From Candidatus Saccharimonadota bacterium (GTDB lineage: Bacteria; Patescibacteriota; Saccharimonadia; Saccharimonadales; JAXHNE01): DNA of 64,000 bases. The stretch is from positions 13,748 to 77,747 of the forward strand of contig JAXHNE010000005.1 in the NCBI GenBank assembly GCA_034520885.1, written 5' to 3'. Made by a program: the position numbers and the translations under genes. Below, piece by piece: positions 5,045-47,542 of the stretch. Every line of letters starts with the position of its first letter. The first letter of the stretch is position 1. A model generated the notes under the pieces. The model searched no databases, had not been told where the DNA came from, and worked only from the letters and a program-made list of their open reading frames with translations.

Positions 5045-6409
5045 GTGCAGGACAGTTTGTGGCAAGCGGTTTTGGGGGAGATCGAGCTATCGGTTTCGCG
5101 CGCCAGTTTCGTCACGTGGTTCAAGAACACTCGCCTGCTGCGCCGCAACGAAGAATTAATGGTCATTGGCGTTCCGAACGTCTTTATAAAGCAGCAATTG
5201 GAGCAAAAGTATAATTCTTTGGTGTTGGACATCTTAAAAAAGAACGGGGTCGACTCGCTCAAAGTGGAGTATAAGATAAACTCCTCCATTACCCCGAAAA
5301 AGAAAGAAAACGACGAGGAAGAAACGGTGGTGCGCCGCGCCGCCGGTACCGTGAAAAAAACCAAACCTTCGTCGGCACTTACCCACAACTACCGCCAAGG
5401 CATTAACGAACGCTACACTTTTGAAAACTTTATCGTGGGGTCGGCCAACGAGCTGGCTTACGCCGCTTGCCAGGCGGTGGCGCAAAATCCGGGCTCCAAA
5501 TACAATCCGTTGTTTTTGTACGGCGGCGTGGGGATCGGAAAAACCCACCTGATCCAGGCGGTCGGCAACGAAATCCTCAAAGCCCGGCCCTCCTCCCGGG
5601 TGGTGTATATTTCTACCGAGCAGTTCGTGCAGGAATTCCTGGACGCCATTCGCTACAAAAAGAATACCGATTTTGCCGGCCACTACCGCAGCGCGGACGT
5701 GTTGATCGTAGACGATATCCAGTTCATCGCCGGCAAGGAAAAAACCCAAGAAGAATTCTTCCACACCTTTAACGCCCTGCACCAGGCCAATAAACAGATA
5801 ATTATTAGCAGCGATAAGCCGCCGCGGGATATCCCGACACTGGAAGAGCGGCTGCAATCACGTTTTGCCTGGGGGATGTCGATTGACATGCAAAACCCCG
5901 ATTACGAAACGCGCTGCGCGATCGTGACCGCCAAAGCCCAATCCCACGACGCTACGCTAGCGCCGGACGTAGTGGAATTTTTGGCCAATTTAATACAGAC
6001 CAACATCCGTGAGCTGGAAGGCGCGCTTAATCAACTACTCGCCTTTTGTGAAATGCGCGGGCTGGAGCCGGAAATCGGGATCGCCAAATCCTTGCTGAGC
6101 GGAAAATCTTCCCGCCCCAAACACGTCAGCGCCAAACAAATCATTGAGCGGTGCGCCAAACACTTTAACGTGGAGGTAGAAGACGTGCTCGGCCCCAAGC
6201 GCGACAAAGACATCGTGGTGCCGCGGCAAATCGCTATGTACATGCTGCGTAGTGAATTGCATTTGAGTTTTCCCAAAATCGCCCGGGAGCTTGGCCGTAA
6301 AGACCACACCACCGCGATTCATTCGGTCGAAAAAATCGAAAAGGCGTCCGGTTTGGATCCGGATCTTAAAACGGCGCTTTCCGATATTAAGGAGCGGTTG
6401 TATGCGTAG
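5045..6409 (+). CDS. dnaA: Chromosomal replication initiator DnaA
   Basis: AAA+ Walker A LFLYGGVGIGKTHL, Walker B LIVDDIQF, and the C-terminal DNA-binding domain (PRQIAMYMLR...HTTAIHSV). The start is set at GTG 5045, with GGGAG 6 nt upstream, giving VQDSLWQAVLGEI.... The track ORF begins at 4949 with an implausible extension. Confidence 0.9.
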   Translation: MQDSLWQAVLGEIELSVSRASFVTWFKNTRLLRRNEELMVIGVPNVFIKQQLEQKYNSLVLDILKKNGVDSLKVEYKINSSITPKKKENDEEETVVRRAAGTVKKTKPSSALTHNYRQGINERYTFENFIVGSANELAYAACQAVAQNPGSKYNPLFLYGGVGIGKTHLIQAVGNEILKARPSSRVVYISTEQFVQEFLDAIRYKKNTDFAGHYRSADVLIVDDIQFIAGKEKTQEEFFHTFNALHQANKQIIISSDKPPRDIPTLEERLQSRFAWGMSIDMQNPDYETRCAIVTAKAQSHDATLAPDVVEFLANLIQTNIRELEGALNQLLAFCEMRGLEPEIGIAKSLLSGKSSRPKHVSAKQIIERCAKHFNVEVEDVLGPKRDKDIVVPRQIAMYMLRSELHLSFPKIARELGRKDHTTAIHSVEKIEKASGLDPDLKTALSDIKERLYA

Positions 6410-6597
6410 TTTTGGAAGGTGGAAGATGGTAGGTGGAAGATGGAATTCATATTTTAGTACTTGGTTTTTGGCAAGTGGTCGTGAAAGTCTACTACTGGGT
6501 ATGCGTAAGTTTGGAAGGTGGAAGATGGTAGGTGGAAGATGGCGGTTGGGTGCTAACACTCTTTACTCTTTGCTCTTTGCTCTTTGCTCACACCTGT
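6400..6597. repeat. 44-bp direct repeat including the last dnaA codons, plus heptamer tracts
   Basis: gtatgcgta-N2-tttggaaggtggaagatggtaggtggaagatgg occurs at 6400-6443 and 6499-6542 (2 mismatches). The first copy contains the dnaA codons TAT GCG TAG. The internal words are ggaaggt ggaagat ggtaggt ggaagat (period 7). They are followed at 6568-6597 by ctcttta ctctttg ctctttg ctctttg ctcac. Confidence 0.8.
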
Positions 6598-8039: not shown

Positions 8040-8473
8040 ACTTCAGCAAGTTGAAAGTGCAAAGCTTAAAGACTAAAGTTTTAGTATGAAGATAAATTCG
8101 TTCGAAGATATATTGGCTTGGAAAAAAGCCAAAGACCTTACGGTGGCGGTGTATAAAACCACCAAAAGCAACAAAGACAATGGCTTCAACAGCCAACTAC
8201 AAAGAGCCGCGGTGTCGATAATGAATAATATTGCTGAGGGGTTTGAGAGACAAAGCAACAAAGAGTTTAAAAAGTTTTTATATATAGCGAAGGGTTCTTG
8301 TGGTGAAGTGAGGTCAATGTTGCGGCTCGGCCAAAGCTTAGAGACGATAAACGAAGATTCCGGCAAGATTTTAATTGACCAGTCAATCGAGATTTCCAAA
8401 CTATTGTCAGGATTAATAAAGAAACTATGAAAACTTTCTACTTTATAAACTTTAAGAACTTTAAACTAAACGC
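8040..8473 (+). mobile_element. Putative heptamer-armed cassette 1 carrying a four-helix-bundle gene
   Basis: The left arm (8040-8085) is built of aagNNNN heptamers: aagttga aagtgca aagctta aagacta aagtttt. The right arm (8431-8473) is built of the complementary NNNNctt words: aaacttt ctacttt ...aactt taagaactt. The cassette begins 1 nt after the dnaN stop and ends 1 nt before the recF ATG. Confidence 0.55.
8086..8430 (+). CDS. Four-helix-bundle protein (23S rRNA intervening-sequence protein / Avd-like family)
   Basis: 114 aa. Family motif QLQRAAVSIMNNIAEGFERQSNKEFKKFLYIAKGSCGEVRSML. Three further paralogs lie in this window. Confidence 0.85.
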   Translation: MKINSFEDILAWKKAKDLTVAVYKTTKSNKDNGFNSQLQRAAVSIMNNIAEGFERQSNKEFKKFLYIAKGSCGEVRSMLRLGQSLETINEDSGKILIDQSIEISKLLSGLIKKL

Positions 8474-9526: not shown

Positions 9527-11059
9527 CTAGAGTCCGGTAATTACCCGATATCCTTCTTGTCTTAAAGAGCTATCCTTAATTAGTTGCTCCAAGTTGGATT
9601 TCACCCGGGAGATCTCATCTTGGCTATAACCCACTGTCTGTATATCTTCCTGGTATGTAGGCTCTCCTAATTCGGGGGCAATGTGTATGGTTTCGTTTTG
9701 TATTGAAACGTTTTTTACTATGGGGTTTTTTTCAAGCTCAAGAAATCGTTGACTGATGTTCATAGTATCTTGTGTTTCTTCGTCCAGAAGTAAGGTGTAC
9801 CTACTTTTAGTAGATAGAAAACAGGGATAAATTTTAGAGTCAAACGACCGGATTCCACACAGTGTGCCCTCACCCGGAGCACTATAGAGCACGGGGCCAC
9901 CCGTTTCTCGGGGATTAAATTTGATCACGGCGCTACTCGTTGATATATACAGCCTATCTTCTATGGTCGTGAAGCCGATACCTTCCGGAATCAGACTTGT
10001 TTTTTGGAGACCGTTATCCTTTTCATATACACCAAGTCCTTCATCGTGAATAATACAAATATAGTTGTTGCCACAAAAATCAGCGCCGCGGACTTCATCG
10101 AAAGATAGCTCATGTTGCCCACTCTCCGATTTTAAAACTACGGTTGAACCCTGCTCTTCTAGTTGGTCGGCATGTGCTTCAACGGCCTCGGCCCTCTCTC
10201 CGGAACCAATACTATGACCCCCACCGTATATAAACATAAACTCCTCGCCGTTGGAGCGAATGGCGTTAAGTGGTTTGTCGTCTTTTTGGTCAGCCGCTTC
10301 TGCTTGTGATGCGGTTAATGTATTGAGATCGGTAACCTTATAGTAGATTGCGTATTCGGTGTCATATGCAAGAAACCCATTTTTTAAATCGACAACTCGT
10401 AGATTTAAGTCGGTCGGGAGGTCTCCTACTATGCGATCCGCCGACACTTCGCCACTATCCGCTAGCGCGAAGAGCCTATGACGACCCGTCTCAAGTAGCT
10501 TAACCAGTAGGTAACTATCTCCCCCTTCTTCGATGTACCCTTCTACGTAACCATCTTGTGAAACGTCTATATTCTTAGCATAACTTGGGTTTGTGCCGCT
10601 TGCGGGAGTATGGAAAACGACTTCACTGAGTAAAGAACCGCCACAAAGTGACGAGAAAAACGCAAAAGGCTCACCCGTGCCATACACACACGGGTGAGGA
10701 TTTATTATCGCAAAACTGTGGTCGCGTTGCTTTATTAGTTCTCCGCCCATGTTTGTACTTTGAAAAAAACCGGGCACGTTGACCCTGGCAAAATAGCGAC
10801 CATCTTTCGAGTCCACAGTAGCCGTGTAATTGCCGCTCTTCAGCGAAATAGTCTCTTCGCTTGAGTTTAGCGGATAGGTTTCCGTCATGTTTTCGTCGTC
10901 GACAAGGGTTAACGTGCCACTACCAGATAAGCTCTCCATAGATATCACGAGTCGTCCACGAGTACTTACCCAAAACAGCAATAGAATAAAACTGGTTACA
11001 GCGAGGGCGACGATTGAGAGTCTGATTAGTTTTCTTTTTTGCACGGCTCTATCCTCCAT
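9527..11059 (-). CDS. Hypothetical N-terminally anchored extracytoplasmic protein (last gene of the T4SS-like operon)
   Basis: 510-aa ORF with a single N-terminal TM segment (LIRLSIVALAVTSFILLLFWV). Its start overlaps the stop of the upstream hydrolase gene. No family recognised. Confidence 0.6.
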   Translation of the reverse strand: MEDRAVQKRKLIRLSIVALAVTSFILLLFWVSTRGRLVISMESLSGSGTLTLVDDENMTETYPLNSSEETISLKSGNYTATVDSKDGRYFARVNVPGFFQSTNMGGELIKQRDHSFAIINPHPCVYGTGEPFAFFSSLCGGSLLSEVVFHTPASGTNPSYAKNIDVSQDGYVEGYIEEGGDSYLLVKLLETGRHRLFALADSGEVSADRIVGDLPTDLNLRVVDLKNGFLAYDTEYAIYYKVTDLNTLTASQAEAADQKDDKPLNAIRSNGEEFMFIYGGGHSIGSGERAEAVEAHADQLEEQGSTVVLKSESGQHELSFDEVRGADFCGNNYICIIHDEGLGVYEKDNGLQKTSLIPEGIGFTTIEDRLYISTSSAVIKFNPRETGGPVLYSAPGEGTLCGIRSFDSKIYPCFLSTKSRYTLLLDEETQDTMNISQRFLELEKNPIVKNVSIQNETIHIAPELGEPTYQEDIQTVGYSQDEISRVKSNLEQLIKDSSLRQEGYRVITGL

Positions 11060-12197
11060 TAATCGACCAGTGCCACGGTTCAGAAGGCAGGTTTTTTAAG
11101 CTGGTGTTGTCGCGTAAAAGTATAAAGCATGGATGGCTTCTACTGCTAATTGTGCTGCCATTACACGTAAAGTCAACAGCACTACCCCGTTCATGATTCG
11201 ATCTACCAGGGATTGCCGTAGCAATCCTACAGCTACCAGGAGGGGCGGAATACACGTCAGGACAACCGTTCTTGACGCGCAACTCTTCTTGGCGCTGTAC
11301 GGATCTCCAACCCCAACCACTCATGTTGAGTCCTTCGTTGTTCGCCAGGTTCACAACCCTCTCAACCTCTTCGGCGATACACGGGTGGACACGTATGCCG
11401 ACTGCCGAAACTGTTTGAGATTCCTCTACGGGTTCAGCCGGGCAGCCATTCTCATCTAACGCAACCGGGCCACCACCCGATTCTCCCGAACAAGTGGATA
11501 CCGAAACGTTTGAAACGCCTTCGACAGCATTAGTCCCGGATCCGAATTCCTGCAGCCAGGCGAGCGCTTGTGAGTGTCTAACCGGGCGGGTTCTTTCTAT
11601 GTGGGCAGGATTTTCATATTCCTCAAGAAAAATATCAGTCGCCTCAATATAGTCCTCCGTAGCCTTAATTGGTTCAAGAGTCGAAGACTTGTAGTCATCA
11701 CTTGTAAGTTCAGTCCACAAGTAGTCAAGTTGCACACCGAGGGGTTCGGTGGGTGGAACACCTCGTTCGGCATACAATTCCCGCAAACCTTGTTTGCGAG
11801 GAGGATGTGTCCACTGAACCAACCCGTAACCTGGCTGCCCTTTGCTGTTTTGATCCGGTGGTACCGTATCAGATCTGTGGGGCGGGTCGCTAAAAGCAAA
11901 CTCAACGACACGAGGATCCCAGGTGCCCGCTGACTCACTTTCGATATTACCCATAATACCCGCGACCTGAGCGGGGGTAAGCCCCTTTGATATAAGGAAA
12001 TTCCAAACCTTTTCCGGATTCTCCGAGCCGGTAAGGATGGTGGCTCCTTCACTGCAAGTACGCGAGTCCGGATCGTAGAAAGGAGTATATAGGTTTTCCC
12101 TGTCCGTGTCGGTGAGTGCGTAGGCCATCGAAGATATAAAAATTTGCCCCAAAAAAGCGAATAAAATAAATAAACAAAAAATACTGCGCCTATTCAT
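11049..12197 (-). CDS. Bifunctional cell-wall hydrolase (lysozyme-like domain + M15/VanY-type peptidase), functionally VirB1/CwlT-like
   Basis: The start is set at ATG 12197 (MNRRSIFCLFILFAFLGQIFISSMAYA, a signal peptide). It overlaps the upstream stop by 8 nt. GIMGNIESESAG is the phage-tail-lysozyme-type motif. The C-terminal PGRSNHERGSAVDF matches the SxHxxGxAxD zinc site of M15 peptidases. Confidence 0.8.
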   Translation of the reverse strand: MNRRSIFCLFILFAFLGQIFISSMAYALTDTDRENLYTPFYDPDSRTCSEGATILTGSENPEKVWNFLISKGLTPAQVAGIMGNIESESAGTWDPRVVEFAFSDPPHRSDTVPPDQNSKGQPGYGLVQWTHPPRKQGLRELYAERGVPPTEPLGVQLDYLWTELTSDDYKSSTLEPIKATEDYIEATDIFLEEYENPAHIERTRPVRHSQALAWLQEFGSGTNAVEGVSNVSVSTCSGESGGGPVALDENGCPAEPVEESQTVSAVGIRVHPCIAEEVERVVNLANNEGLNMSGWGWRSVQRQEELRVKNGCPDVYSAPPGSCRIATAIPGRSNHERGSAVDFTCNGSTISSRSHPCFILLRDNTSLKNLPSEPWHWSINGG

Positions 12198-14763
12198 TGG
12201 TAAAGTACGCTCCTGCTGCTTCGACCGCCGCTTCCTCCAGGAGGCAAGGGTTGGCAATCCTTTTTTCTTCCAATCCAGTGTAGGGGTTTTCATTTCCTTC
12301 GCCGGACTCTTCCCATCGTTCTTTGTACTCTTCGCAGCTTTCTTCGGTTAATTGATCGGGGTTTCGAGTAAAGGCGGGATCATTCTGGCTATAGCCGTAC
12401 CGTGTAATTCCAAAGGCGTTTATTGCCAGTTGCTGTTCGGCCAGTGAATCCGCCCCCACACTGCCGGTAAAAGCATTCCTTAAGTTCGCCTTGAAACCAT
12501 TCATTATTCCGAAGATCGCGCCAGTGCCCTGAGTTTGACCAATGGGTATAGAACCAACCAGGCCGCTGGCGAGTGATTGAGGGTGCTCAAGGCTTGCGAG
12601 GCGCGTAAGTAAGTCTTCTTTACGGAAGTTTTGACGTTGTTGCTCCAACTGTTCCTTCGTTATTTTAGCGTACTCTTCGTCGCTAATAACCGGGGCGCCC
12701 AGACCGTAAGGTTGGCCGGATTCGTCATATCCGCCCTCGGCGAATTCCGCCGATGTCACATCAGCGCCCGCTATGACTCCGTCCAACTTGACACGCGCCG
12801 GGCTGTCTTCTTGTACGGGGAGCGGAAAGACGTAACTAAATACCCATGTAAGAAAGGTGTCGAACAGGTTTTTAGCCCACTCTTCGAATGTATCGTAACC
12901 ACGAATATTGGATACCAAACCAAAGACGACACTTCCTATTGAGCTCAGGACGAAGTCTACAGCACCAACTATCCTTTCAAGGAAAAAGCGATAATCTGCT
13001 GGGCAAGGAGCGTTAATTTCTACAACAATTTCAACGCCTGGTGGACTTGTTACGCAGTCATCCAACGTATTTACTGCGCTGGCCACTCTATCGACCACCG
13101 GATTGTCCCGAAGCTTCTCTACCTCGAATCTATCCCCCGGGCCTCTAACAATCTTCTTTTCATCGCACACGTGATCACCTCTGTCTATCGGTTCTCCGTC
13201 CTGACAAGTGTATTCCTCGTCGGATTGTGCATGCACCGTTGAACTTCCGAGGAAGGCGACGTCATTGTTTTGTTGATTGGAATAGGCGCGCCACAATTTA
13301 CTTTTTTCAGCACCATCAAGGTCACTCAAAGCCGCTCCAAGTTCATTCAAGTCTACTTCGTGAGATTTTGTCTCGTCATTCAATGAACGAAAACCAGTAT
13401 AAATTTCTCTGTATTGTTCAGCAGCCAAAGCCGAATGGAACCGACTAAGTGCATCGTCATCTATAGCCCGGTCAAAATCATCAGCCAAAAGAGCCATGGA
13501 CGCAACAAAGTATAATTGTCCTGCCACAGGAATTTTAGTCGCTGCAAGCCGAGCCGAACTATCCTTCATGACCTTTGCCAACAATTTTTCGAGGACATAA
13601 CTGCTCACAGTTCCCCTGCTTCTACCAAGAGGTTTTCCATTCTCGTCTGTTCCACGAAAATGCTTTATAATGTCATTTCTGTCTTCCTCGGAAAGGTTGT
13701 TTCTGTCAAGGTCTCTTTCCCGCAAGTCGTTGGGGCCACAAGAGTTTGCGCGGCTTCCGATGTTCCTGTCGATAGCGCAGGTAAATATGAGGCCATACTT
13801 ACTAGAAAAAGGATATACAAACCTGCTTACGAATCTGTACTTATATCTCGTTCGTGCGCTTGCACTCCGGTCTTCCAGGTTATCTCTCGTGTCGCAAGCC
13901 CAAAAACACCAAAGCCTGACGTCGTGTTTTCGCTGGAGGTATTTACGGATTGAGCGGCGCTCCATGACCTGATAGATCTTTGTTTCTTGCCGTAAAAAAC
14001 GGTTCATTTCACGGCCGAAATCCCTCCTCCCCCTGTCGGTTACGATATTCCTGAATTTTCCGTCAACGTCCCTGCTTAAGTCGATTTCACTCCTGAGTTT
14101 GGTATCGTATAGGCGATGTCGAGTAATGCCGGTATCACTGTCTTGTTCCGTTCTGATTTCTATACCGTAGTTATCAAATAACTTTTGCTCGACTCGTGCG
14201 TCGCGCCATTGATTGAACAAGTTACCAGCGATACCTGCCCCCCTATAGGTATATCTGCAGTCGAGAGACACTGTCTGAGTACAGGTATTGAGCTGAGTCA
14301 TATAGGACACCATATATCTTTCCATGAGATGCCCCGCCCGGGCTTCAACGGCGTTGGCGGCAACAGCAAACGCTTTTTGGTTGATATTCTGCATAAAGTG
14401 TTCGAGCTTGAGTGCTGGGAGGGTCAATACCGATATGAGCACACCCCCGCCCACGAAAAGGCCGATAACTCCTCCTCCGGCTTTTCTGCGGCGGGTCCAG
14501 AACTTTTTCTTATTGGCACCACTTCCGTCATCTTTAAATAAGCTTTGCTCTTCTTCGCCTCCAGTGTCTTTACGAGGTTCAGCACCTTCTTCCTTTTCAG
14601 CGATTTCGTTAGGCGAGAGTGATCTTTGGCCGATATCCTCCGCCGCTCCGCTGTGGGCTTCGCGGTCCATGGCCTCTTCTTCATCGGGAGAAATACCGGT
14701 AATACCCCTTAATTCATCATTCGAGGTCCCCTTTTTTTGTCGTTGATCGTCGTAGACTGGCAT
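12190..14763 (-). CDS. Large T4SS-associated membrane protein, function unknown
   Basis: 857 aa. Acidic cytoplasmic N-terminus, a TM segment (GGGVIGLFVGGGVLISVLTLPAL) and a large exported region with a second hydrophobic patch. Lies between the virB4-like gene and the hydrolase. No family recognised. Confidence 0.6.
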   Translation of the reverse strand: MPVYDDQRQKKGTSNDELRGITGISPDEEEAMDREAHSGAAEDIGQRSLSPNEIAEKEEGAEPRKDTGGEEEQSLFKDDGSGANKKKFWTRRRKAGGGVIGLFVGGGVLISVLTLPALKLEHFMQNINQKAFAVAANAVEARAGHLMERYMVSYMTQLNTCTQTVSLDCRYTYRGAGIAGNLFNQWRDARVEQKLFDNYGIEIRTEQDSDTGITRHRLYDTKLRSEIDLSRDVDGKFRNIVTDRGRRDFGREMNRFLRQETKIYQVMERRSIRKYLQRKHDVRLWCFWACDTRDNLEDRSASARTRYKYRFVSRFVYPFSSKYGLIFTCAIDRNIGSRANSCGPNDLRERDLDRNNLSEEDRNDIIKHFRGTDENGKPLGRSRGTVSSYVLEKLLAKVMKDSSARLAATKIPVAGQLYFVASMALLADDFDRAIDDDALSRFHSALAAEQYREIYTGFRSLNDETKSHEVDLNELGAALSDLDGAEKSKLWRAYSNQQNNDVAFLGSSTVHAQSDEEYTCQDGEPIDRGDHVCDEKKIVRGPGDRFEVEKLRDNPVVDRVASAVNTLDDCVTSPPGVEIVVEINAPCPADYRFFLERIVGAVDFVLSSIGSVVFGLVSNIRGYDTFEEWAKNLFDTFLTWVFSYVFPLPVQEDSPARVKLDGVIAGADVTSAEFAEGGYDESGQPYGLGAPVISDEEYAKITKEQLEQQRQNFRKEDLLTRLASLEHPQSLASGLVGSIPIGQTQGTGAIFGIMNGFKANLRNAFTGSVGADSLAEQQLAINAFGITRYGYSQNDPAFTRNPDQLTEESCEEYKERWEESGEGNENPYTGLEEKRIANPCLLEEAAVEAAGAYFTNE

Positions 14764-15155
14764 TATTGAGTCCTGATTTTTGAGTTTTGTGTCTTGAGTG
14801 ATTTAAGAAGCCCGCTCAGTATCTTGGATATTTCATCGGTATTCTCCACCAGTCTATAATAGTCCTCAGTCTTGAAGTACTCAAGACTTCTTCCGAGTTC
14901 AAGCATAGATTCAACTTCGGCAGCAGAACCTTTGGCAATCAAGAGAAAGTTGGAAAAAGCCTTTGGGCTTCTTCTGGAGTGGCCTTCGGCTATATTGTTC
15001 ATAATCGAGACGGACGCTCTTTGTATCTGATCACGGAAGGAAAAGTCTTTGTTATTTTGCAGTAGTCCATATATTTCAACGCGTAAATGACGAGCTTTTT
15101 GCCAAGCCTTGATGTCTCGAAACGACTGCCCGGTGTTTTTGTTTACTTTGCTCAT
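14763..15155 (-). CDS. Four-helix-bundle protein (23S rRNA IVS protein / Avd-like family)
   Basis: 130 aa. Motif QIQRASVSIMNNIAEGHSRRSPKAFSNFLLIAKGSAAEVESML. Its stop shares 1 nt with the ATG of the downstream 857-aa gene (TAATG). Confidence 0.85.
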   Translation of the reverse strand: MSKVNKNTGQSFRDIKAWQKARHLRVEIYGLLQNNKDFSFRDQIQRASVSIMNNIAEGHSRRSPKAFSNFLLIAKGSAAEVESMLELGRSLEYFKTEDYYRLVENTDEISKILSGLLKSLKTQNSKIRTQ

Positions 15156-15196
15156 GGCTTTTGCTCAATACTCATCACTCACTACTCACAACTCAT
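14763..15196 (-). mobile_element. Putative heptamer-armed cassette 2 carrying a four-helix-bundle gene
   Basis: The right arm (15156-15196) reads gctcaat actcatc actcact actcaca actcatt (actcNNN). The left arm (14766-14810) reads ttgagtc ctgattt ttgagtt ttgtgtc ttgagtg (NNNgagt, the complement). The arm cores atcactca...aactca are shared. The left arm supplies the last codons of the gene (KSLKTQNSKIRTQ). Confidence 0.55.
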
Positions 15197-17122
15197 TTAT
15201 GAGCCGGGGCTTAGGCGGTTGTTCAGGTCTATTGTACCTTGTTCGCCGGATATTTCGCCCTGTTGTTCTATTTGGCTTACTTGTTCCGGATTGGTGGTGA
15301 TCAAATTGGTTTCCGTGGGGCTGGCGGTAACCTGAATATGTACGTGATTTTGCCCGGCAAAGAATAACCCTTGACCCACCGGGAATTGGCTGAGGCGTTT
15401 CTTTTCCTCGCTAGTGAGTTTGAATACATGAGAAAGTGTGTCCACGGCGGTGGAGGATTGTTTGAGCAGGATTTGCATGGAGGCGTTGGCCACGATTGCC
15501 CGCCCCATACGGCTACCCATAAAGTCTTCCACGTCTTGTGAAATGGTGGTGATACCCAGGTTGTATTTACGGGCCCGTTTGGCCAGGCTGAACATGAAAT
15601 TGGCGGAATCTTCGTACTTCATGAGCTGCCAGGCTTCGTCGACCACCAGCATACGACGCTTTTGGTCGGCTTTGGTTTTGTTCCAGATAAAGTTAAGTAC
15701 GATATACATGGCCACCGGGCGCAGTTCGTCTTCCAGGTCACGGATATTAAATACCACCATCGGGTTGTTGATGTCGATGTTAGACGGTTGCGAGAAGATA
15801 CCCGCGAACGTACCGGTGGTGTATTTGCGAAGCCGTTGCGCCAATTGCGGCCCATTTCCGCCCATATGTAACAGCGTGTCGTAAAGATCGTTAATGGTCG
15901 GCGGCGGCGAAGTGTGCGTGAGCGGATCGTTGGTGATTCCGGCTTTGGCATAGGTTTCGATCAGTGCGGCGTCCAGATCGGCCTCTTCAGCGGGGCTGAG
16001 CGCCGGAGCAATGCTGCCCTGGGCGCCTTCTTGTTGAGCCATTTGGGCCTGGGCGCCGCCCATCATCAGCCGTAAGAGCCCGTGCAAAGTAATCAGGTTG
16101 CTGCGCAGGGCGTTATCGGCCTCCTCTTCGTCGGCAACTTTCGGCAAATCAAAAGGGTTTATCCTGGTCGGTGAATTCAAACTTAAGCGAACGTAGGCTC
16201 CGCCGACCGCTTCGGCCATGCGCTGGTATTCGTTTTCCGGGTCGATAATGAACACCTCGGTGCCGAACATCATGCTACGCAAGGCTTCCAGCTTAACGGT
16301 AAAACTTTTACCGGCGCCGGACTTGGCAAACACCACGGAATTGCCGTTTTCCAAGGAAAAGCGATCAAAAATCACCAACCCGGAGTTGTGCATGTTAATG
16401 CCGTAAAGAATGCCGTTATCTTGCGTAAGATCGGCCGAAGTGAACGGGAAGCTGGTGCTTAAAGCGCCGGTGTTCAGGTTGCGGCGAATCTGCAGTTGAT
16501 CCGTAAATTGCGGCACGGTGCTGTTTAAGCCTTGCTCTTGCTGTGAAGTGGCCGGTTTGGAGTAAATTAATTGCTGGCCAAGCATGGATTCCACTTTTTG
16601 GGCGACGTATTCCAGCTCGTCTTCCGATCCCCCGTAAATCGTAAAGTACAGCCCGAAGCGGAAGAAGCGTTCTTCGCCCACCTGTAGTTTGTCGCGCATT
16701 TCCTCGGCGTCCTGGATGGCGGCCTGGGTGCCCGGATCGCGAACCCGACCCTTCTCGGCAGTGATTTGCATATCGGCCTCCAAGCGGGACACCTTTTTCT
16801 TGAGGTTATCCAGCACTACCTGGCTTTCGACTGGATAAATGTAAATTGAAAGATCAATCACTTCGTCCAGATTGACCATACTACTTAACCAACCGGTAAA
16901 AATTTGCCGCGGATACCCATACACGTAGTAGGTGCGGGCGTAGCGGGTGCCGATTTGAAAGTCCTTATTGTTAAAGACAATGGAGCTGGGGGCAATAAAG
17001 TCACGGAGCGCGCCAACACCCTTCTGGAAAGCGGCTTGGACTTCTTGCTCCTCACGGGCTTTTTGCTGCTGCGCCAGCGTCACCGGATCGGTCTGGTCGT
17101 TCTTTTTACCAAACAAACTCAC
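15197..17122 (-). CDS. virB4: VirB4/TrbE/ConE-family type IV secretion ATPase
   Basis: 641 aa. Walker A VFAKSGAGKSFT and Walker B MLVVDEAWQLM. The N-terminal domain is typical of VirB4 (GTRYARTYYVYGYPRQIFTGWL). GTG start. Confidence 0.9.
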   Translation of the reverse strand: MSLFGKKNDQTDPVTLAQQQKAREEQEVQAAFQKGVGALRDFIAPSSIVFNNKDFQIGTRYARTYYVYGYPRQIFTGWLSSMVNLDEVIDLSIYIYPVESQVVLDNLKKKVSRLEADMQITAEKGRVRDPGTQAAIQDAEEMRDKLQVGEERFFRFGLYFTIYGGSEDELEYVAQKVESMLGQQLIYSKPATSQQEQGLNSTVPQFTDQLQIRRNLNTGALSTSFPFTSADLTQDNGILYGINMHNSGLVIFDRFSLENGNSVVFAKSGAGKSFTVKLEALRSMMFGTEVFIIDPENEYQRMAEAVGGAYVRLSLNSPTRINPFDLPKVADEEEADNALRSNLITLHGLLRLMMGGAQAQMAQQEGAQGSIAPALSPAEEADLDAALIETYAKAGITNDPLTHTSPPPTINDLYDTLLHMGGNGPQLAQRLRKYTTGTFAGIFSQPSNIDINNPMVVFNIRDLEDELRPVAMYIVLNFIWNKTKADQKRRMLVVDEAWQLMKYEDSANFMFSLAKRARKYNLGITTISQDVEDFMGSRMGRAIVANASMQILLKQSSTAVDTLSHVFKLTSEEKKRLSQFPVGQGLFFAGQNHVHIQVTASPTETNLITTNPEQVSQIEQQGEISGEQGTIDLNNRLSPGS

Positions 17123-17144
17123 AAGACAACCCCCCGGGACTCTA

Positions 17145-17234
17145 AAGTCTGAAATCTGAAATGTGAAACCAGAAACAAATCTGAAATCTGAAATGTGAAA
17201 CCAGAAACAAATCTGAAATCTGAAATGTGAAACT
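17145..17234. repeat. 31-bp tandem repeat (about 2.8 copies) built of heptamers
   Basis: aaatctgaaatctgaaatgtgaaaccagaaac is repeated head-to-tail at 17146, 17177 and 17208 (the last copy is partial). It sits between the virB4 start and the stop of the four-helix-bundle gene. Confidence 0.9.
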
Positions 17235-17636
17235 TCATGATGAATTCCTCACAATCGCTCCGAGAATATTCATTAATTCGGTTGCTTCCTTCTGCAGTCT
17301 CGACTGTTCTTTACGATTTAATTCATTTGCTGTAATAAGTTCTAACCAGTAAATTGTTTCTCTCGCTTCTTTTTTTGCGATCTTAACCCGCATAATAAAA
17401 TCTTTCTTGCTTAAGGATTGATTTGCCTCCAAGTAGTTCGCACCAACGGAACCGGAAGAGCGAACGAGTTGCTTGCCGTCCTCTCTGTTACCGGCATTTT
17501 TAGGAAGTGCCCCCACGAATAAACGAACGTCTTTTGCGAACTTTTTAGTTCTATCTTCAAGATCAAAACGTTTCTGATTTCGTGCTTCGTGCTTGTTTCT
17601 GATTTCGTGCTTCGTGCTTCGTGCTTCAGTTTTCAT
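17235..17636 (-). CDS. Four-helix-bundle protein (23S rRNA IVS protein / Avd-like family), subtype B
   Basis: The start is set at ATG 17636, in an ATGA overlap with the upstream stop. Motifs RFDLEDRTKKFAKDV and QLVRSSGSVGANYLEANQSLSKKDFIMRVKIAKKEARET. The track ORF's 60-aa N-terminal extension overlaps the upstream gene and is rejected. Confidence 0.8.
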   Translation of the reverse strand: MKTEARSTKHEIRNKHEARNQKRFDLEDRTKKFAKDVRLFVGALPKNAGNREDGKQLVRSSGSVGANYLEANQSLSKKDFIMRVKIAKKEARETIYWLELITANELNRKEQSRLQKEATELMNILGAIVRNSS

Positions 17637-18547
17637 GAATATATATCCTTTTCCAGCTGTGGCTGGGCGGCTTGGCCTTCGCCCTTGGTGACAACTGGCG
17701 CTGTCATGGTGTTGAAGTCTTTCAGTTGCTGGCGGGTCGCGGTGTCCGGATTGTAGGTGTCGTAGTACAGTTCGATCAGCTCTTGCGTGTCCAGCGGGAT
17801 TCCCTGGATGCCGCATTGCTGCAACCCGTTTAACACCGCTTGTACGCGGTTACGCAGTTCGTCCTTGGCTTTGTTGAGCGTGGCTTCGTTGATGGTGACG
17901 TGCACGTCCTTGGGCTTGAAAATATGGGTCAGCCCCTGGAAGAATCCCCTACTACTTTCCACGGCCTGCTTTAGATCACCTTCCGGAAAGTACGGAATTA
18001 CCACGTAAAAATTCTTGTCCATAATGTTGGTTTGCAGGGAAAGGTTGTCGATGTAGGTAATGTAATCCTCCATTAACAGTGATAGCAGCATATTGTCATG
18101 CTCGCCACGGATTTTATCCAGCTTTTGGATATAGGGGGTCATGTCCACTTTGCGTGATCGCAGGAAAATTTGTATCGGAAAATATAAGGAGTTTAAAAAT
18201 CCCTGGTAACTGTATTCCACCGCATCCCGTTCTTCCGGGCTCATGAGATCGAAGTTGATGGAGCGGACGGCCACTACGGAGCGAAAGGAGCCGTCGTTCA
18301 TAATCACGATGCCATCGCGCACTTCGGCAATCTGTAAGGAGTTCTGGGTGCTATTAGGGTTGCCGGCCGGAGGTTGTTCCTTAGATTTTTGAGGTGTTGG
18401 TTGCTGGCCTTGAGATTGTTGGGGTGGCGGCTGTTGCCCCGGCGCTTGTTGTTGGCCGGGGTTTTGGGGCGCGTAGGCCTGCCCCGGCTGCGATTGAGCG
18501 GGAGGCTGCTGGGGATTGTTTTGTTGGCCGGGGTTTTGGGGATTCAT
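17633..18547 (-). CDS. T4SS-associated protein with a Gln/Pro-rich N-terminus, function unknown
   Basis: 304 aa. The first ~70 aa are low complexity (NPQNPGQQNNPQQPPAQ...). The segment DGSFRSVVAVRSINFDLMSPEERDAVEYSYQGFLNSLYFPIQIF is reminiscent of the N-terminal region of VirB4-type proteins, but this resemblance is weak and judged only by eye. Confidence 0.55.
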   Translation of the reverse strand: MNPQNPGQQNNPQQPPAQSQPGQAYAPQNPGQQQAPGQQPPPQQSQGQQPTPQKSKEQPPAGNPNSTQNSLQIAEVRDGIVIMNDGSFRSVVAVRSINFDLMSPEERDAVEYSYQGFLNSLYFPIQIFLRSRKVDMTPYIQKLDKIRGEHDNMLLSLLMEDYITYIDNLSLQTNIMDKNFYVVIPYFPEGDLKQAVESSRGFFQGLTHIFKPKDVHVTINEATLNKAKDELRNRVQAVLNGLQQCGIQGIPLDTQELIELYYDTYNPDTATRQQLKDFNTMTAPVVTKGEGQAAQPQLEKDIYS

Positions 18548-18802
18548 GTAAAACTAAACTCCACGTTTCAAATATCAATTTCCAGGGAATGGCTAAACAT
18601 TAACGTTTTCCCTGTCAATTTTACTTGTGATCGACCGTAATATCAAAACTATCCGATGACTTTCATTCATAAAAACCTCCGGATCGTAAGGAACTGATCG
18701 CACATTGGAGTTTGTGATTTGAGATTTAAGTTCTTCACGCCACCCTAAAAAGGTTATTCTTATATGCGGTTAATTATAGAGGAATTTTGTGCTTTGCACA
18801 AA

Positions 18803-19287
18803 ATAGCTGAAAGCTAAATGCTAAGAGCTCAAAGCTGCGCAATTTCCAATTTCCAATTTCTAATTTTCATTCAATTCTCAACCGCCATTTTTTAAACTAG
18901 TGGTAATTTTTTGGAAGATTAATACCAACTCATGAACTTCTTGCCATAATGATCGTAAATCAGCTTTTTTCGAAGGCGTTGCGGTACTAAGCATACGGAG
19001 CCAATGCTGTGTTTCTTGAGCCTCTTTTTTACAGATATGAATTTTATTACGGAAATCTTTTTTAGAGCTGGCCCCGTTCGCTTCCATATAGTTTGCTCCA
19101 ATGCTTGTCGAGGAACGAACCAACTGATTAATCAAAGGCTTGTTTATATTATTTTGTTTAATAACTTTACAGAGCTTAATTACATCTTCCCCAAACCTTG
19201 ATGTTCTTTCCTCTAAATCAAATTTATTGTCTTTTTGAGCCATTGAAGATTGATTGTAAATTGTAAAATTGAAAACTAAAAATTAAC
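18803..19287 (-). mobile_element. Putative heptamer-armed cassette 4 carrying a four-helix-bundle gene
   Basis: The left flank begins with agctgaa agctaaa tgctaag agctcaa agctgcg, then caatttc caatttc caatttc taatttt cattcaa. The right flank (19244-19287) reads ttgaaga ttgattg taaattg taaaatt gaaaact, whose reverse complement gives the caattt-type words. Confidence 0.55.
18878..19243 (-). CDS. Four-helix-bundle protein (23S rRNA IVS protein / Avd-like family), subtype B
   Basis: 121 aa. Motifs KFDLEERTSRFGEDV and QLVRSSTSIGANYMEANGASSKKDFRNKIHICKKEAQET. Confidence 0.85.
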   Translation of the reverse strand: MAQKDNKFDLEERTSRFGEDVIKLCKVIKQNNINKPLINQLVRSSTSIGANYMEANGASSKKDFRNKIHICKKEAQETQHWLRMLSTATPSKKADLRSLWQEVHELVLIFQKITTSLKNGG

Positions 19288-19345
19288 TTCTTGAATGATT
19301 CGATAGGCATACTGACAGCATAACGTATCAGCATTCAGCTGGTGG

Positions 19346-20464
19346 TCAGTGCAAACTGACCACGACTTCGTCGGGGTGGTCGTCGTCCTTGTTTTTGTTG
19401 GCTTGGCGGGCAATGGTTTCCACGTTCAGGTCGTTGTTATTGGCCAGTTGGGTGACTGACGGATCGGGTTTTTTCGGTTCCGGCTTGGCGGGTTCTTTTT
19501 GGTTCGTTGGTTGTTGATGAGGGGTGGATGGTGCCGCGTCTTTTTGCTTTTTTTGTTCGGAAAGCGGGAGCACGGTTTTTTGGTGCGTGGTGTAGGTGGA
19601 CTTTTTAGCTTGGGAGTCGTGAATTTTATTAAGTAAAGCTTCTTCATCGGCCTTGGAGAGGTTTTGCTCGCCCGGCTCCGGTTTGTCGTCAGTGTGCGGC
19701 GCAACGGTGGTGCCCTGCCCGGTTGCCATACCGGGTGGCGTTTTGCTAGGGTCGTTTTGGTGCATGAACCAAAAATCTTGCGGCGTTTGTTGGTTTTGCT
19801 GATTTTCTTGCGGGGCGGCTTGTGGGTGCGACATTCGTTGTTTTATCTGGTCTTTATGCGTGGCTTCGGATTGGGTAATCATTTTATCGATGTTTTTGGC
19901 GGTGGGATTGTTGTTTTCATCGAGCACGTCTTCTTTTACCCCAACATCGGTGGCAATTTGGGTGCCTACGGTTTCCGTTCCGGCGACCAACCGGTCGGAA
20001 TTGTCCACTTGTTGGCCGCCAAATGGCGAACCGCCCAATTGTTTTACCGCCCAGCCGCGGCTATCCACGGTTTGCGCCAGGGCGGAAAGCCGGCTGCGGA
20101 CTTGGGTTTGATCCAGTTCATCGGTAAGGTGCCGTTCCACTTTTTTCGGAACCGTAATAGTAACCAGTTCTTTTATGCCGGCTTGATCCCAAATGCGCTT
20201 ACGCGGCTTAAAGAAAAAGCGGATTTTTGCCAGCAACCATGTTTCCGTGGGTTGCGCTTTGCTCCACGGGAACCCGAGTACCCCGAAAAACACGGCCGGC
20301 GGTAGCAAAAATATCGCAAAAAATGCCGCCCCTTGAGTGAAAGTAAAAAAAATGAGGTACAAACACACGGCGGTAATTGCAAAGTAAATAAATTGCTTGA
20401 GCGTGAGCGGCCCGATGAGTTTGTCCTCGGCCTCGATATCTTGGATCACTTTGTGCTGCGCCAT
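19346..20464 (-). CDS. PrgI/VirB3-like T4SS membrane protein with a long disordered C-terminal extension
   Basis: The N-terminus VIQDIEAEDKLIGPLTLKQFIYFAITAVCLYLIFF followed by two TM helices is the PrgI-family pattern. The C-terminal ~200 aa are Q/P/K-rich. Confidence 0.7.
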   Translation of the reverse strand: MAQHKVIQDIEAEDKLIGPLTLKQFIYFAITAVCLYLIFFTFTQGAAFFAIFLLPPAVFFGVLGFPWSKAQPTETWLLAKIRFFFKPRKRIWDQAGIKELVTITVPKKVERHLTDELDQTQVRSRLSALAQTVDSRGWAVKQLGGSPFGGQQVDNSDRLVAGTETVGTQIATDVGVKEDVLDENNNPTAKNIDKMITQSEATHKDQIKQRMSHPQAAPQENQQNQQTPQDFWFMHQNDPSKTPPGMATGQGTTVAPHTDDKPEPGEQNLSKADEEALLNKIHDSQAKKSTYTTHQKTVLPLSEQKKQKDAAPSTPHQQPTNQKEPAKPEPKKPDPSVTQLANNNDLNVETIARQANKNKDDDHPDEVVVSLH

Positions 20465-33364: not shown

Positions 33365-35113
33365 ATGAAAATGGGCTGGGTTTTGGGTTTAGCTACGGTC
33401 TTCACCGCCGTTTTTCTATTGCCGGTTCACGTTGCGGCCGATACTGGCAACACGACTGCAACTACCGCTTCAAATATCCTCGTGAGTGAAGTGCAAAACA
33501 GGGGTGTCGTGGATGGCGAAACGTCCGGAAGCCGGGAGTTTATCGAACTGTATAATCCCACGGAAGAGACCGTGTCGCTTGATGGCTGGCAACTAGTGTT
33601 TTATAACGCCAGCGGCAGCGTGGAACGCGAAGTGGCGACGTTTGAGGACGACGCCGACACGGAGGTGTATTACGAAATATCACCCGACTCATTTTTTGTC
33701 GTAAGCCACGAGGCCTTTTTGCCCGACGCCGACTTTATACTGGACTCCCGTTCGGTTTCCGGTTACTTGAATTATAACGATGGAACGGTTCGTTTGTTTA
33801 ACGCCCAGGACGAGCCGGTCGATCTCATGGGTTACGGTGACCCCGAAGGATTCAATACCAATCCCGCCCCCGCTCCCGAGGAAGACGAATCGCTGAGCCG
33901 CTGTTTCGACGAAAACGGTATCGTGCGAAACACTGGTGACAATTCGGTCGATTTTCTCATAAATGATGCCCCGCTTCCCGGCGAAGGCATAGAGTGCCCG
34001 GACGCTGTGGGAGATCCCGATGACGATAACGACGAGACCTCCGGCGATTCTGACGACCCCGATGACGAGTCTAATGACGACAACGGTGATGATTCTGAGG
34101 ACCCCGATTCTTCAAAAGACAACGACGACGAAAACGAGGATACCGAAAACGAACCTCCGGCCAATACCTGCGAGAAAGTGCGACTCTCGGAAATAGGCGC
34201 CTATCTGGACGAGCAATTCATCGAGGTGTACAACACTTCCGATGAAGCGGTTTCACTAAAAGGTTGCCAGCTGCAAACCAACCGCAGTGACGAAACCTAC
34301 GTTTTTGGTGATAAAACCATGGAGCTTCAATCTTATTCGGCGGTGCTCATCGAGAATACGGAACTCACACTCACCAAAACCACCACCGGCACGGTGTACG
34401 TATTATCGGAGGACGGCTCCGTGGAGGTCGACGAGCAATACTACGAAGACCTAAAATCCGAAACTTCCTGGGCGTGGTTCGGCGACGGCCAATGGGAACA
34501 AACTTTCACCACGACCCCGGGCGGGGAAAACGTCCGGCGGGAACTTCGCCCCTGCCCCGAAGGTAAAAAACGCCACCCCGAAACGCGCAGATGCCGCACC
34601 ATCGAAACGGAAGAATCGTCGCTCAAGCCGTGCGATCCGGATCAAGAACGCAACCCCGAAACCAACCGTTGCCGCAAAATTGACGCGGGCAGCTCCGACC
34701 TCGAGCCGTGCGGGCCGGGCAGAGAGCGCAACCCGTCCACCAATCGTTGCCGCTCCATAGGCGGTGACTCCCGGGAGCTCGTGCCATGCGATGACGACCA
34801 AGAACGCAATCCGGAGACCAATCGTTGCCGACTCATTAACTCGACCTCGGAGCTTAAACCGTGCGGCGAAGGCAGAGAGCGTAACCCCGAAACCAACCGT
34901 TGCCGTAACGTGGCTTCGGCCTCCACGGTTTCGGGTATGGACGTTCGGGACGTGGCCTCCACGAACACGGGGACGCCCACCAGCTGGTGGTTCGCCGGCT
35001 TCATGGTAGCGTTCGCGACCGCGTACGGTTTGTGGGAATGGCGCTACGACATAAAAAACCTGGGAATGCGTTTGAACGAAAAGTTTTCCGTCCGCAAACC
35101 CGGCAGCGGCTGA
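33365..35113 (+). CDS. Lamin-tail-domain (LTD) surface protein with an acidic linker, five Cys-pair repeats and a C-terminal TM anchor
   Basis: Signal peptide. Two LTD-like modules (EFIELYNPTEETVSLDGWQLVFYN; QFIEVYNTSDEAVSLKGCQLQTN). D/E-rich linker. Five repeats of PCxxxxERNPETNRCR. Hydrophobic C-terminal segment WWFAGFMVAFATAYGLW. Confidence 0.8.
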   Translation: MKMGWVLGLATVFTAVFLLPVHVAADTGNTTATTASNILVSEVQNRGVVDGETSGSREFIELYNPTEETVSLDGWQLVFYNASGSVEREVATFEDDADTEVYYEISPDSFFVVSHEAFLPDADFILDSRSVSGYLNYNDGTVRLFNAQDEPVDLMGYGDPEGFNTNPAPAPEEDESLSRCFDENGIVRNTGDNSVDFLINDAPLPGEGIECPDAVGDPDDDNDETSGDSDDPDDESNDDNGDDSEDPDSSKDNDDENEDTENEPPANTCEKVRLSEIGAYLDEQFIEVYNTSDEAVSLKGCQLQTNRSDETYVFGDKTMELQSYSAVLIENTELTLTKTTTGTVYVLSEDGSVEVDEQYYEDLKSETSWAWFGDGQWEQTFTTTPGGENVRRELRPCPEGKKRHPETRRCRTIETEESSLKPCDPDQERNPETNRCRKIDAGSSDLEPCGPGRERNPSTNRCRSIGGDSRELVPCDDDQERNPETNRCRLINSTSELKPCGEGRERNPETNRCRNVASASTVSGMDVRDVASTNTGTPTSWWFAGFMVAFATAYGLWEWRYDIKNLGMRLNEKFSVRKPGSG

Positions 35114-47453: not shown

Positions 47454-47542
47454 CCCGCCCCAAAATCTTGACGCTCCACAATCTGGTTGCGGACTGCTTC
47501 GCTCAGGATTTGGGGCGGGGCAGGCATCGCGCCCGGTAATTG

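Follow-up and report, generated by a model that had tools for sequence, protein, structure and literature searches.

Introduction

Intervening sequences (IVSs) are insertions in 23S rRNA, described for example in Coxiella burnetii and Leptospira, and some of them contain an open reading frame (ORF). In Coxiella, the 23S IVS is 428 nt long, and its ends form a 28-bp stem with the ORF for the protein S23p in the loop; tandem heptamers (GACAGAT) are found upstream of the ORF, RNase III cuts at the first repeat, and the authors of that description consider the RNA part of the IVS to matter more than S23p (PMC4990558). ORFs of the 23S_rRNA_IVP type are also found in rRNA insertions of the candidate phyla radiation (PMC11270868). 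A homologous protein, Avd of diversity-generating retroelements (DGRs), is a pentameric, positively charged four-helix bundle which contacts a defined RNA element (bioRxiv 10.1101/2023.10.23.563531).

Here, we describe four genes of this family (TIGR02436/PF05635) in a stretch of 64,000 nt from a Candidatus Saccharibacteria genome (GenBank assembly GCA_034520885.1, contig JAXHNE010000005.1), hereafter the window. Three of them interrupt an operon for a type IV secretion system (T4SS), each as part of a cassette with repeat arrays on both sides of the ORF. The accessible parts of PMC12102498 state that patescibacterial T4SS genes are often found close to the replication origin and that T4SS components have been classed as essential in one Saccharibacteria strain; the TIGR02436 family does not appear among the T4SS components in those parts of the paper and its supplement. 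A first-pass annotation of the window left two explanations side by side: that the elements prefer the inter-cistronic junctions of this operon, or that the four-helix-bundle proteins have been recruited to T4SS expression or function. The comparisons given below indicate that the cassettes are probably insertion modules of the IVS type, i.e., passengers of the T4SS rather than components of it, which settle co-directionally between the cistrons of conserved operons.

The Cassette Genes

The window is an origin-proximal part of the genome and has the gene order YidC, DnaA, DnaN, (cas1), RecF, followed by the T4SS operon, which occupies the minus strand from 23652 down to 9527. The operon comprises, in order, a 318-aa gene, a 722-aa TrbL/VirB6-like gene, PrgI/VirB3, a TrsD-like gene of 304 aa, VirB4, an 857-aa gene, a lysozyme/VanY gene and a 510-aa gene; the pilin genes are on the opposite strand. 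The three intact minus-strand cassette genes (casA, casB and casC) had been placed by the first-pass annotation between the 857-aa gene, virB4, the 304-aa gene and the PrgI-like gene, and both the ORF coordinates and the family matches bear this out. A tblastn search of the window with casA, casB and casC revealed a single further copy, cas1:

casA, 14763-15155, minus strand: 130 aa, between VirB4 and the 857-aa gene; PF05635 E = 6e-33, 113.7 bits; TIGR02436 111.7 bits
casB, 17235-17636, minus strand: 133 aa, between the 304-aa TrsD-like gene and VirB4; PF05635 E = 1.6e-15, 57.7 bits; TIGR02436 80.0 bits
casC, 18878-19243, minus strand: 121 aa, between PrgI and the 304-aa gene; PF05635 E = 5e-17, 62.5 bits; TIGR02436 83.1 bits
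cas1, 8086-8430, plus strand: fourth TIGR02436 gene, between dnaN and recF; TIGR02436 112.1 bits

The curated cut-offs are 33.8 bits for PF05635 and 24 bits for TIGR02436; casA, casB and casC score above both, and cas1 above that of TIGR02436. By sequence, casB also matches a solved structure, PDB 2RLD (E = 1.9e-14), an entry with five chains. The ATG at 17636 is the sole in-frame start of casB. None of the cassette proteins matches a known T4SS family: the matches are to PF05635/TIGR02436, to DUF5454 below threshold (casC), and to NF0089xx subfamilies below their cut-offs. A weak match links casA to the PHROG Avd family (E = 7e-5), and no relatives of casC were found on viral contigs. A reading as a defence system was rejected, as PADLOC gave no defence-system match.

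By the terms of the first-pass annotation, its reading would be refuted if related loci never contained such genes and the copies proved to be recent pseudogenes. Neither is the case. Related operons do contain them (4 of 80 loci; see below), and comparisons of orthologues (casB in nine genomes, casA with related locus L067, cas1 with loci L007 and L009) gave nonsynonymous divergence (dN) of 0.19-0.34 with saturated synonymous divergence (dS). As dS is saturated in nearly all pairs, point estimates of dN/dS were dropped and the qualitative result, dN << dS, was kept. On the strength of these sequence comparisons, the cassette genes are functional genes under purifying selection and not pseudogenes.

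Junctions with the Host Genes

The four-helix-bundle genes had been described as joined to their neighbors by tight junctions. This is so on only two of the six junction sides, where start and stop codons overlap, as can be read directly in the sequence:

14761-14765, minus strand: TAATG, in which the final A of the casA stop (TAA) is also the first base of the 857-aa gene's ATG
17633-17636, minus strand: ATGA, in which the ATG of casB overlaps the TGA of the 304-aa gene; it replaces the stop/start overlap which joins TrsD to VirB4 in insert-free relatives

The other four sides are not tight: 41 nt separate VirB4 from casA, 112 nt casB from VirB4, 102 nt PrgI from casC, and 330 nt casC from the 304-aa gene. 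Two of these spacers contain further features:

17123-17146, minus strand: G-rich ribosome-binding segment CCCGGGGGG, derived from the insert and located ahead of the GTG start of VirB4 at 17122
18548-18804, minus strand: extra spacer between casC and the 304-aa gene, in which there is a hairpin (TTTTGTGCAAAGCACAAAA) and also, upstream of the TrsD-like gene, a site at 18646-18618 that resembles a sigma70 site in 10 of 12 positions

Shine-Dalgarno (SD) mini-hairpins equivalent to the segment at 17123-17146 are also present in casB orthologues and in inserts lacking an ORF. There is no terminator-like site on the operon strand within 14761-19290. Three consecutive junctions are filled, which for four copies among 61 junctions has P ~0.006, or P ~0.018 if only the 37 co-directional junctions are counted.

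Occupied and Empty Junctions in Related Genomes

The locus was compared with 80 species-representative Saccharibacteria loci, each covering 10 kb on either side of virB4. In these relatives, the median gap between TrsD and VirB4 is -1 nt (TAATG, with a single shared base, in about 45 loci), as compared with 510 nt in the window; the gap between PrgI and TrsD has a median of 48 nt, as compared with 798 nt; and that between VirB4 and the next gene a median of 34 nt, as compared with 433 nt. A family ORF is present within the 10-kb flanks of virB4 in 8 of the 80 loci and inside the operon in 4. Thus, the insertions are polymorphic and, given that 76 of the 80 relatives have no family gene in the operon, the cassettes are dispensable for the T4SS.

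The insertions are confined to a few hot-spot junctions. All 12 family ORFs in the 80 loci are located at PrgI/TrsD, TrsD/VirB4 or dnaN/recF; the junction between VirB4 and the 857-aa gene holds a family ORF in the window only, and dnaN/recF, which holds cas1 in the window, is filled in five related loci (L007, L009, L020, L053 and L067). Where TrsD/VirB4 is filled, the former overlap now contains the start of the cassette gene (as ATGA in the window, as TAATG in L067 and as TGATG in L001), and VirB4 gains a new G-rich ribosome-binding segment, often within a mini-hairpin. The copy in L001 at this junction is of a different subtype, 37% identical to casA and cas1, and those in L019 and L033 at PrgI/TrsD belong to yet another subtype. 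The presence of unrelated subtypes at the same junction in different genomes argues for repeated colonization. In L067, there is an orthologue of casA (67% identical) as well as a casC-like copy (72% identical), which is split.

The casB type is more persistent. All nine orthologues examined (L081, L082, L067, L091, L092, L093, L095, L097 and the window) are at TrsD/VirB4, begin in an overlap of 1 or 4 nt and share the arm-encoded N-terminus MK.E.RS.K.ETN..QKRFDLEDR; in all nine, the frame through the arm is open and there is no alternative start. Genomes with casB are scattered, by VirB4 similarity, among nearest neighbors that have no casB, and a single clade of casB-bearing genomes was rejected on this basis. 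Such scatter implies either many losses or lateral spread via the conserved flanks. The casB lineage is a long-term resident of TrsD/VirB4, where it might have a local modulatory role.

Derivatives without an ORF occur at the same positions. In L081, the closest relative (VirB4 94% identical), a 126-nt ORF-less hairpin occupies the position of casA and has casA-like arms and a stretch resembling the first codons of casA. Approximately 20% of species have heptamer hairpins or other inserts at TrsD/VirB4 (L051, L052, L053, L009, L072 and others), and the arm remnant in L051 resembles a casC arm. The pentamer TRATG is kept at the VirB4 start in 16 of 27 filled TrsD/VirB4 junctions, as compared with 13.6% of control starts (p = 4e-7); it could reflect the duplication of a target pentamer, or else be the vestige of a stop overlap of the kind seen in casA.

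Some copies differ in their arrangement. In the PrgI/TrsD spacers of L067 (5639-8417) and L092 (1534-1908), there are intact or split family genes antisense to the operon; the two fragments of the casC-like copy in L067 are about 1 kb apart. Recombination between the inverted arms could have caused these inversions. In L053, the TrsD/VirB4 spacer (approximately 9852-10004) contains a 151-nt ORF-less heptamer hairpin which, by manual reading, appears to be spanned in frame by a mini-ORF of 50 codons, beginning in a TAATG overlap and ending in a TGATG overlap with VirB4. If this putative mini-ORF is translated, coupling could be relayed through the hairpin.

The Arms: Inverted Arrays of Short Units

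Each cassette ORF in the window is bracketed by imperfect inverted repeats composed of short tandem units:

15163-15196, minus strand: casA 5′ arm, five GAGT-core heptamers (ATGAGTT GTGAGTA GTGAGTG ATGAGTA TTGAGC), beginning directly after the VirB4 stop
14766-14801, minus strand: casA 3′ arm, ACTC-core heptamers (CACTCAA GACACAA AACTCAA AAATCAG GACTCAA), inside the ORF and encoding the C-terminal extension KSLKTQNSKIRTQ
17570-17634, minus strand: casB 5′ arm, GAAGCAC/GAAATCA/GAAACAA heptamers in two 25-nt units, encoding the N-terminal extension MKTEARSTKHEIRNKHEARNQK
17147-17234, minus strand: casB 3′ arm, three 32-nt units of TTTCAC/TTTCAG/TTTGTTTCTGG heptamers (also given as TTTCAG/TTTGTTTC), non-coding and complementary to the 5′ arm
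19244-19287, minus strand: casC 5′ arm, TTTTCAA/TTTTACA/ATTTACA/ATCAATC units
18840-18877, minus strand: casC 3′ arm, GAATTGA ATGAAAA TTAGAAATTG GAAATTG GAAATTG
19307-19340, minus strand: outer 5′ arm around casC, GCTGAATGCTGA..., from the minimum free energy (MFE) fold
18805-18837, minus strand: outer 3′ arm around casC, AGCTTTN units, paired with 19307-19340 in the MFE fold
8050-8085 and 8431-8470: cas1 arms, AAAGT units and ACTTT units, respectively

That arm sequence encodes the termini of two of the proteins, as had been noticed at first pass, is correct. The last 15 residues of casA come from its 3′ arm, and the Pfam match stops at residue 115 of 130; the first 22 residues of casB come from its 5′ arm. 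Canonical relatives begin 9 aa before the motif YDLEDR and the casB type 21-23 aa before it; canonical members of the family do not have the 12-15 arm-encoded extra residues of casA and casB. The predicted pairing of the outer arms suggests that casC is nested within an older hairpin.

The two arms of a cassette are complementary. When whole inserts are folded without constraints, the MFE structure joins the 5′ arm to the 3′ arm in each of the four window cassettes and each of the nine casB orthologues, by 20-48 long-range pairs (48 in casB of the window). When the arm-arm duplex is compared with dinucleotide shuffles, the sense strand gives z = -2.1 for casA, -4.8 for casB, -3.7 for casC and -2.2 for cas1; for casC, the antisense value is -1.3. 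Short-arm shuffles and whole-insert folds were used because duplexes of 150-nt flanks and lenient Smith-Waterman scoring were uninformative, with a high background and alignments running into random sequence. An RNAalifold consensus of the nine casB orthologues has conserved TTGTTTC/GAAACAA pairs. The arm sequences themselves differ among the four copies in the window and among genomes.

The Family Outside the T4SS Operon

A scan of metagenomes for relatives of casA yielded 80 diverse loci (40-59% identity). Their flanks are also complementary (median z of about -3 in 77 relatives), and have a lag-7 autocorrelation of 0.40 (controls, 0.27); there is also a harmonic at lag 14, as well as a secondary 9/18 signal. 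In 5′ arms, the triplet AGT has a frequency of 4.7 per 70 nt, an 8-fold excess over control, and in 3′ arms, ACT has a frequency of 3.9, a 7-fold excess; the polarity of AGT and ACT relative to the ORF is fixed, the spacing of the units is, by frequency, 7 > 9 > 8 nt, and the median chain is five units per arm (range 3-15).

The core of the units depends on the protein subfamily. Arms with AGT accompany 61 of 77 casA-like proteins, and arms with GAAA/TTTC accompany 13 of 14 casB-like proteins, including those of Verrucomicrobia, Doudnabacteria and other lineages. The association between subfamily and core has Fisher p values of 1e-8 to 6e-11; although the nine copies from Saccharibacteria cannot be counted as independent, the 5′ arm is consistent in the five other lineages. 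The casB-like core is CGAAA(Y) in the 5′ arm and (R)TTTCG in the 3′ arm, with GAAACAA...TTGTTTC innermost, and is seen in Saccharibacteria, in a protein cluster named for Verrucomicrobia, and at the LemA/M48 (Doudnabacteria), ruvA/ruvB and aminoacyl-tRNA synthetase (aaRS)/EF-P sites. The casB-like genes in these ruvA/ruvB, LemA/M48 and aaRS/EF-P pairs of other lineages are 60-65% identical and have the same arms. One casB-like cassette between two surface-protein genes (L181:2866-2929) differs in having a direct rather than inverted downstream arm, with GAAA units on both sides.

Family genes favor junctions between co-oriented genes. Same-strand neighbors account for 119 of 136 neighbors, as compared with 163 of 217 control gene pairs (p = 3e-4), and both neighbors are co-oriented in 43 of 57 cases, as compared with 75 of 133 controls (p = 0.002). 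Together with the location of all 12 ORFs at junctions, the turnover of subtypes and the other gene pairs, this upholds the proposed preference for inter-cistronic junctions and makes it a general property, beyond the T4SS operon. The upstream neighbors of 58 metagenomic copies belong to 76 unrelated Pfam families, and no T4SS family is among the 25 most frequent of these. Among 72,556 plasmids, there are homologues of casA in 8 records (all cyanobacterial) and of casB in 27 (mostly cyanobacterial). Finished Nostoc plasmids have the same architecture with other cores (AATTCGC, GGAAGTC); therefore, the design is not an assembly artefact. In the literature consulted, and the Coxiella description aside, no paper was found which reports the family at operon junctions or connects it with heptamer arrays.

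Host Genes and Other Repeats in the Window

The T4SS genes next to the cassettes are as follows:

15197-17122, minus strand: VirB4 (641 aa), PF19044, PF12846 and PF01935
17633-18547, minus strand: TrsD/TraC-like gene (304 aa), weak NF041427 TrsD match, PF26593 (TraC-like) in orthologues
19346-20464, minus strand: PrgI/VirB3-like gene (372 aa), PF12666 E = 5e-12
12190-14763, minus strand: 857-aa gene, VanY domain in the counterparts of relatives

VirB4 is 80-94% identical across Saccharibacteria, and hundreds of homologues from this group are 84-94% identical to VirB4 of the window. The 304-aa gene is a paralogue of the N-terminal region of VirB4, with weak NCBIfam VirB4-family matches; it has a Q/P-rich N-terminus and an exact 21-nt repeat at 18449 and 18521. 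Approximately 30 kb from the operon, an 898-aa gene (52362-55058) has weak matches to coupling proteins (T4CP/TrwB-like) and to DUF87.

Heptamer arrays are also found elsewhere in the window. An ORF-less hairpin on the plus strand (58836-59182) has one arm of TAGAGGT heptamers (58840-58900) and one of ACCTCTA/ACGTCTA (59106-59182); its MFE stem is about 65 bp and its loop, of about 190 nt, contains no family ORF. The spacer between dnaA and dnaN (6400-6589) has 44-nt direct repeats (6400-6443 and 6499-6542, 95% identical) with GGAAGAT/GGTAGGT heptamers, followed by an array of four CTCTTTG units at 6558-6589; the presumed oriC region therefore also holds heptamer arrays. Downstream of the valyl-tRNA synthetase gene (43661-43831), there are two pyrimidine-rich arrays of ATCTTCY units, the reverse complement of the GGAAGAT type at 6400, with no obvious inverted partner. 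An AGCTTTN array at 48220-48251 is built of the type of unit that also makes up the outer arms of casC. The TsaD ORF has an over-long 5′ end, within which there are approximately 15 TCTGTNN heptamers (48426-48554); its Pfam match begins only at residue 118, so that the true start of TsaD is probably downstream. The 3′ end of TsaD is duplicated 180 nt further on, as a 92-nt direct repeat of 91% identity (47362-47453 and 47542-47633), which may be the scar of an insertion or a deletion. An ORF with a lamin-tail domain (33365-35113) contains five tandem repeats of about 78 nt (34543-34918).

Interpretation

The module proposed here would consist of a TIGR02436 gene, for an S23p/Avd-like and presumably pentameric four-helix bundle, between two inverted arrays of approximately five units of 7-9 nt. 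The T4SS operon is origin-proximal, is presumably coupled in translation and has components classed as essential in one strain, hence only non-polar insertions should survive in it, and this is why the cassettes appear stitched in. The cassettes would be transcribed by read-through from the operon promoter. As casB uses the overlap which once coupled TrsD to VirB4, its 5′ arm would be translated, and casB would supply VirB4 with a new SD segment; casA would be read through its own 3′ arm to the TAATG overlap with the 857-aa gene. In the transcript, the arms could pair and enclose the ORF, and the resulting stem is a candidate site at which RNase III might split the polycistronic RNA, by analogy with the IVSs of 23S rRNA. 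Over time, the ORF would be lost and the heptamer hairpin left behind.

Several observations weigh against this interpretation as passenger modules of the IVS type. Cutting the casB stem would sever the start codon of casB itself, so translation and cleavage are incompatible on one transcript. A few copies (L067, L092) are antisense to the operon yet intact. No near-identical copies at different sites were seen, and the proposed mobility is drawn from the patchy distribution only. The pairing of the arms has no RNA-specific signature: G-U pairs are not above A-C overall, and sense is more stable than antisense in just 37 of 77 loci. No compensatory covariation was detected among the nine casB orthologues: in an anchored ungapped test, self-pairing was no better than cross-pairing, and in the RNAalifold consensus the paired columns are conserved, with one both-sides change among 16 arm pairs. 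Hence, the arms may be complementary as a by-product, either of arrays that bind protein and are inverted or of a process at the level of DNA.

The structure of the arms also leads to a more specific, and more tentative, proposal. Cores specific to each subfamily and approximately five units per arm suggest that a pentameric protein reads its own arms. One pentamer would bind one array of about five units, with one unit per subunit, and the core (GAGT, CGAAA or others) would co-vary with the subfamily. It is possible, if rather speculative, that TIGR02436 genes are in this way self-recognizing modules, which colonize spacers within highly conserved transcription units (rRNA helices, virB4, dnaN-recF, ruvAB), perhaps through homologous recombination in the conserved flanks, and which toggle between arm-arm pairing, as a substrate of RNase III, and protein-bound arms.

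A process at the level of DNA would make the cassettes transposon-like: the arrays would be subterminal binding sites, synapsed by the protein or by a factor in trans, the stop/start pentamer would be duplicated, and RNA pairing would be incidental. The absence of strand asymmetry in arm complementarity, the conservation of the core motif across phyla while the spacers vary, and the ORF-less derivatives, which resemble MITEs (miniature inverted-repeat transposable elements), would all be expected of such an element, and the retention of TRATG in filled junctions is compatible with a 5-bp target duplication, although it could equally be the vestigial stop overlap mentioned above. Yet no transposase, integrase or reverse transcriptase was found among the 30 largest ORFs of the window, a helical bundle of about 120 aa has no known catalytic motif, and no recent identical copies were found; moreover, a pure DNA transposon need respect neither a fixed AGT/ACT polarity nor the orientation of its host genes, and here the polarity is fixed and co-orientation is enriched. 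This explanation is rather unlikely.

Recruitment to the T4SS was the second of the explanations offered at first pass. The four-helix-bundle proteins, or at least the casB lineage, would then be accessory or regulatory parts of the system, for instance in setting the TrsD:VirB4 stoichiometry or as chaperones. The clustering in the window, the recurrence of casA- and casC-like copies around the same operon in L067 and L092, and above all casB, which keeps the same junction and the same arm-encoded N-terminus in nine of nine orthologues under strong purifying selection, speak for it. As a property of the family, recruitment does not stand: 76 of 80 species representatives have no family gene in the operon and most keep the direct TAATG overlap, different subtypes occupy the same junction, and neither the upstream neighbors of the 58 metagenomic copies, as judged by their 25 most frequent families, nor the plasmids reveal an association with T4SS genes. 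For casB, a reservation is appropriate, even though casB-bearing genomes are scattered among casB-free ones and casB-like genes with the same arms are found in the ruvA/ruvB, LemA/M48 and aaRS/EF-P pairs. Overall, we consider recruitment very unlikely.

Lastly, the stems could be RNA modules domesticated by the host, which would keep them to punctuate the long T4SS transcript, for RNase III or for stability, much as in the early region of phage T7; the ORF would be secondary. This would fit the weight given to the RNA part in Coxiella (PMC4990558) and the ORF-less hairpins which persist at these junctions in approximately 20% of species, frequently together with an SD mini-hairpin before VirB4. 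It is barely credible, as in most relatives there is a 1-nt overlap without any hairpin, purifying selection acts on the ORFs, and arm sequences at the same junction differ between genomes.

If the cassettes are passengers of the IVS type, foreign cistrons tied into the translational coupling of the Saccharibacteria T4SS operon are tolerated there and, in one lineage, stably retained, and anyone interpreting or engineering this locus must treat the cassette genes as passengers. ORF-bearing IVSs would then be no curiosity of rRNA, but one habitat of a widespread operon-spacer cassette which is found in Saccharibacteria, other Patescibacteria, Cyanobacteria, Verrucomicrobia and others, and ORF-less heptamer hairpins would gain a plausible origin. 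A module that reads itself would, if real, explain the purpose of the IVS ORF, a question since this ORF was first described in the early 1990s, as well as the heptamer arrays strewn across some genomes. This protein family, very large and without an assigned function, thereby acquires a concrete binding hypothesis: a pentamer against five repeats of its cognate core.

Comparison with Known Systems

Correia elements (NEMIS), enterobacterial repetitive intergenic consensus (ERIC) sequences, repetitive extragenic palindromes (REP/BIME) and MITEs are inverted repeats located between cistrons and co-transcribed with them, and some are cut by RNase III or RNase E. The cassettes resemble them in that ORF-less forms are common at operon junctions. 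They differ in that their arms are arrays of short units with copy-specific spacers and no conserved terminal inverted repeat, and in that they carry a gene which is not a transposase and whose subfamily predicts the core. Two hallmarks of MITEs or DNA transposons are thus missing: the copies share no conserved terminal inverted repeat, and no transposase was found among the 30 largest ORFs of the window.

The short tandemly repeated repetitive (STRR) sequences of cyanobacteria are tandem heptamers in intergenic DNA, and the four-helix-bundle genes of Nostoc plasmids are likewise flanked by inverted heptamer arrays (AATTCGC, GGAAGTC). No paper was found which links STRR sequences to the TIGR02436 family. 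Rings of the TRAP type are oligomers that read spaced short repeats; a pentameric family and a median of five units per arm would make the predicted binding similar, by analogy only, since the folds are unrelated.

Avd shares its family with the cassette proteins, but heptamer arms are a feature of the cassettes and have not been described for DGRs. The 30 largest ORFs of the window, when scanned, included no reverse transcriptase, and there is no pair of template and variable repeats near the cassettes; a reading as DGR Avd was rejected on these grounds.

The closest likeness is to the IVSs of 23S rRNA in Coxiella burnetii (S23p) and Leptospira. The protein family is the same (PF05635/TIGR02436), and the inserts are of similar size, 433-510 nt here and 428-444 nt there (PMC4990558). 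Both have terminal inverted repeats as a stem with the ORF in its loop, as well as tandem heptamers upstream of the ORF, which runs in the same direction as the host transcript; both are distributed sporadically and have ORF-less or decaying forms. Unlike rRNA IVSs, the cassettes have a protein-coding operon as their host (Rfam finds no rRNA in the window), their arms partly encode protein termini, and their ORFs are tied to neighboring cistrons by stop/start overlaps and are under purifying selection rather than decaying; excision by RNase III is, for the cassettes, an analogy. Being outside rRNA, the cassettes therefore work like IVSs but are not rRNA IVSs.

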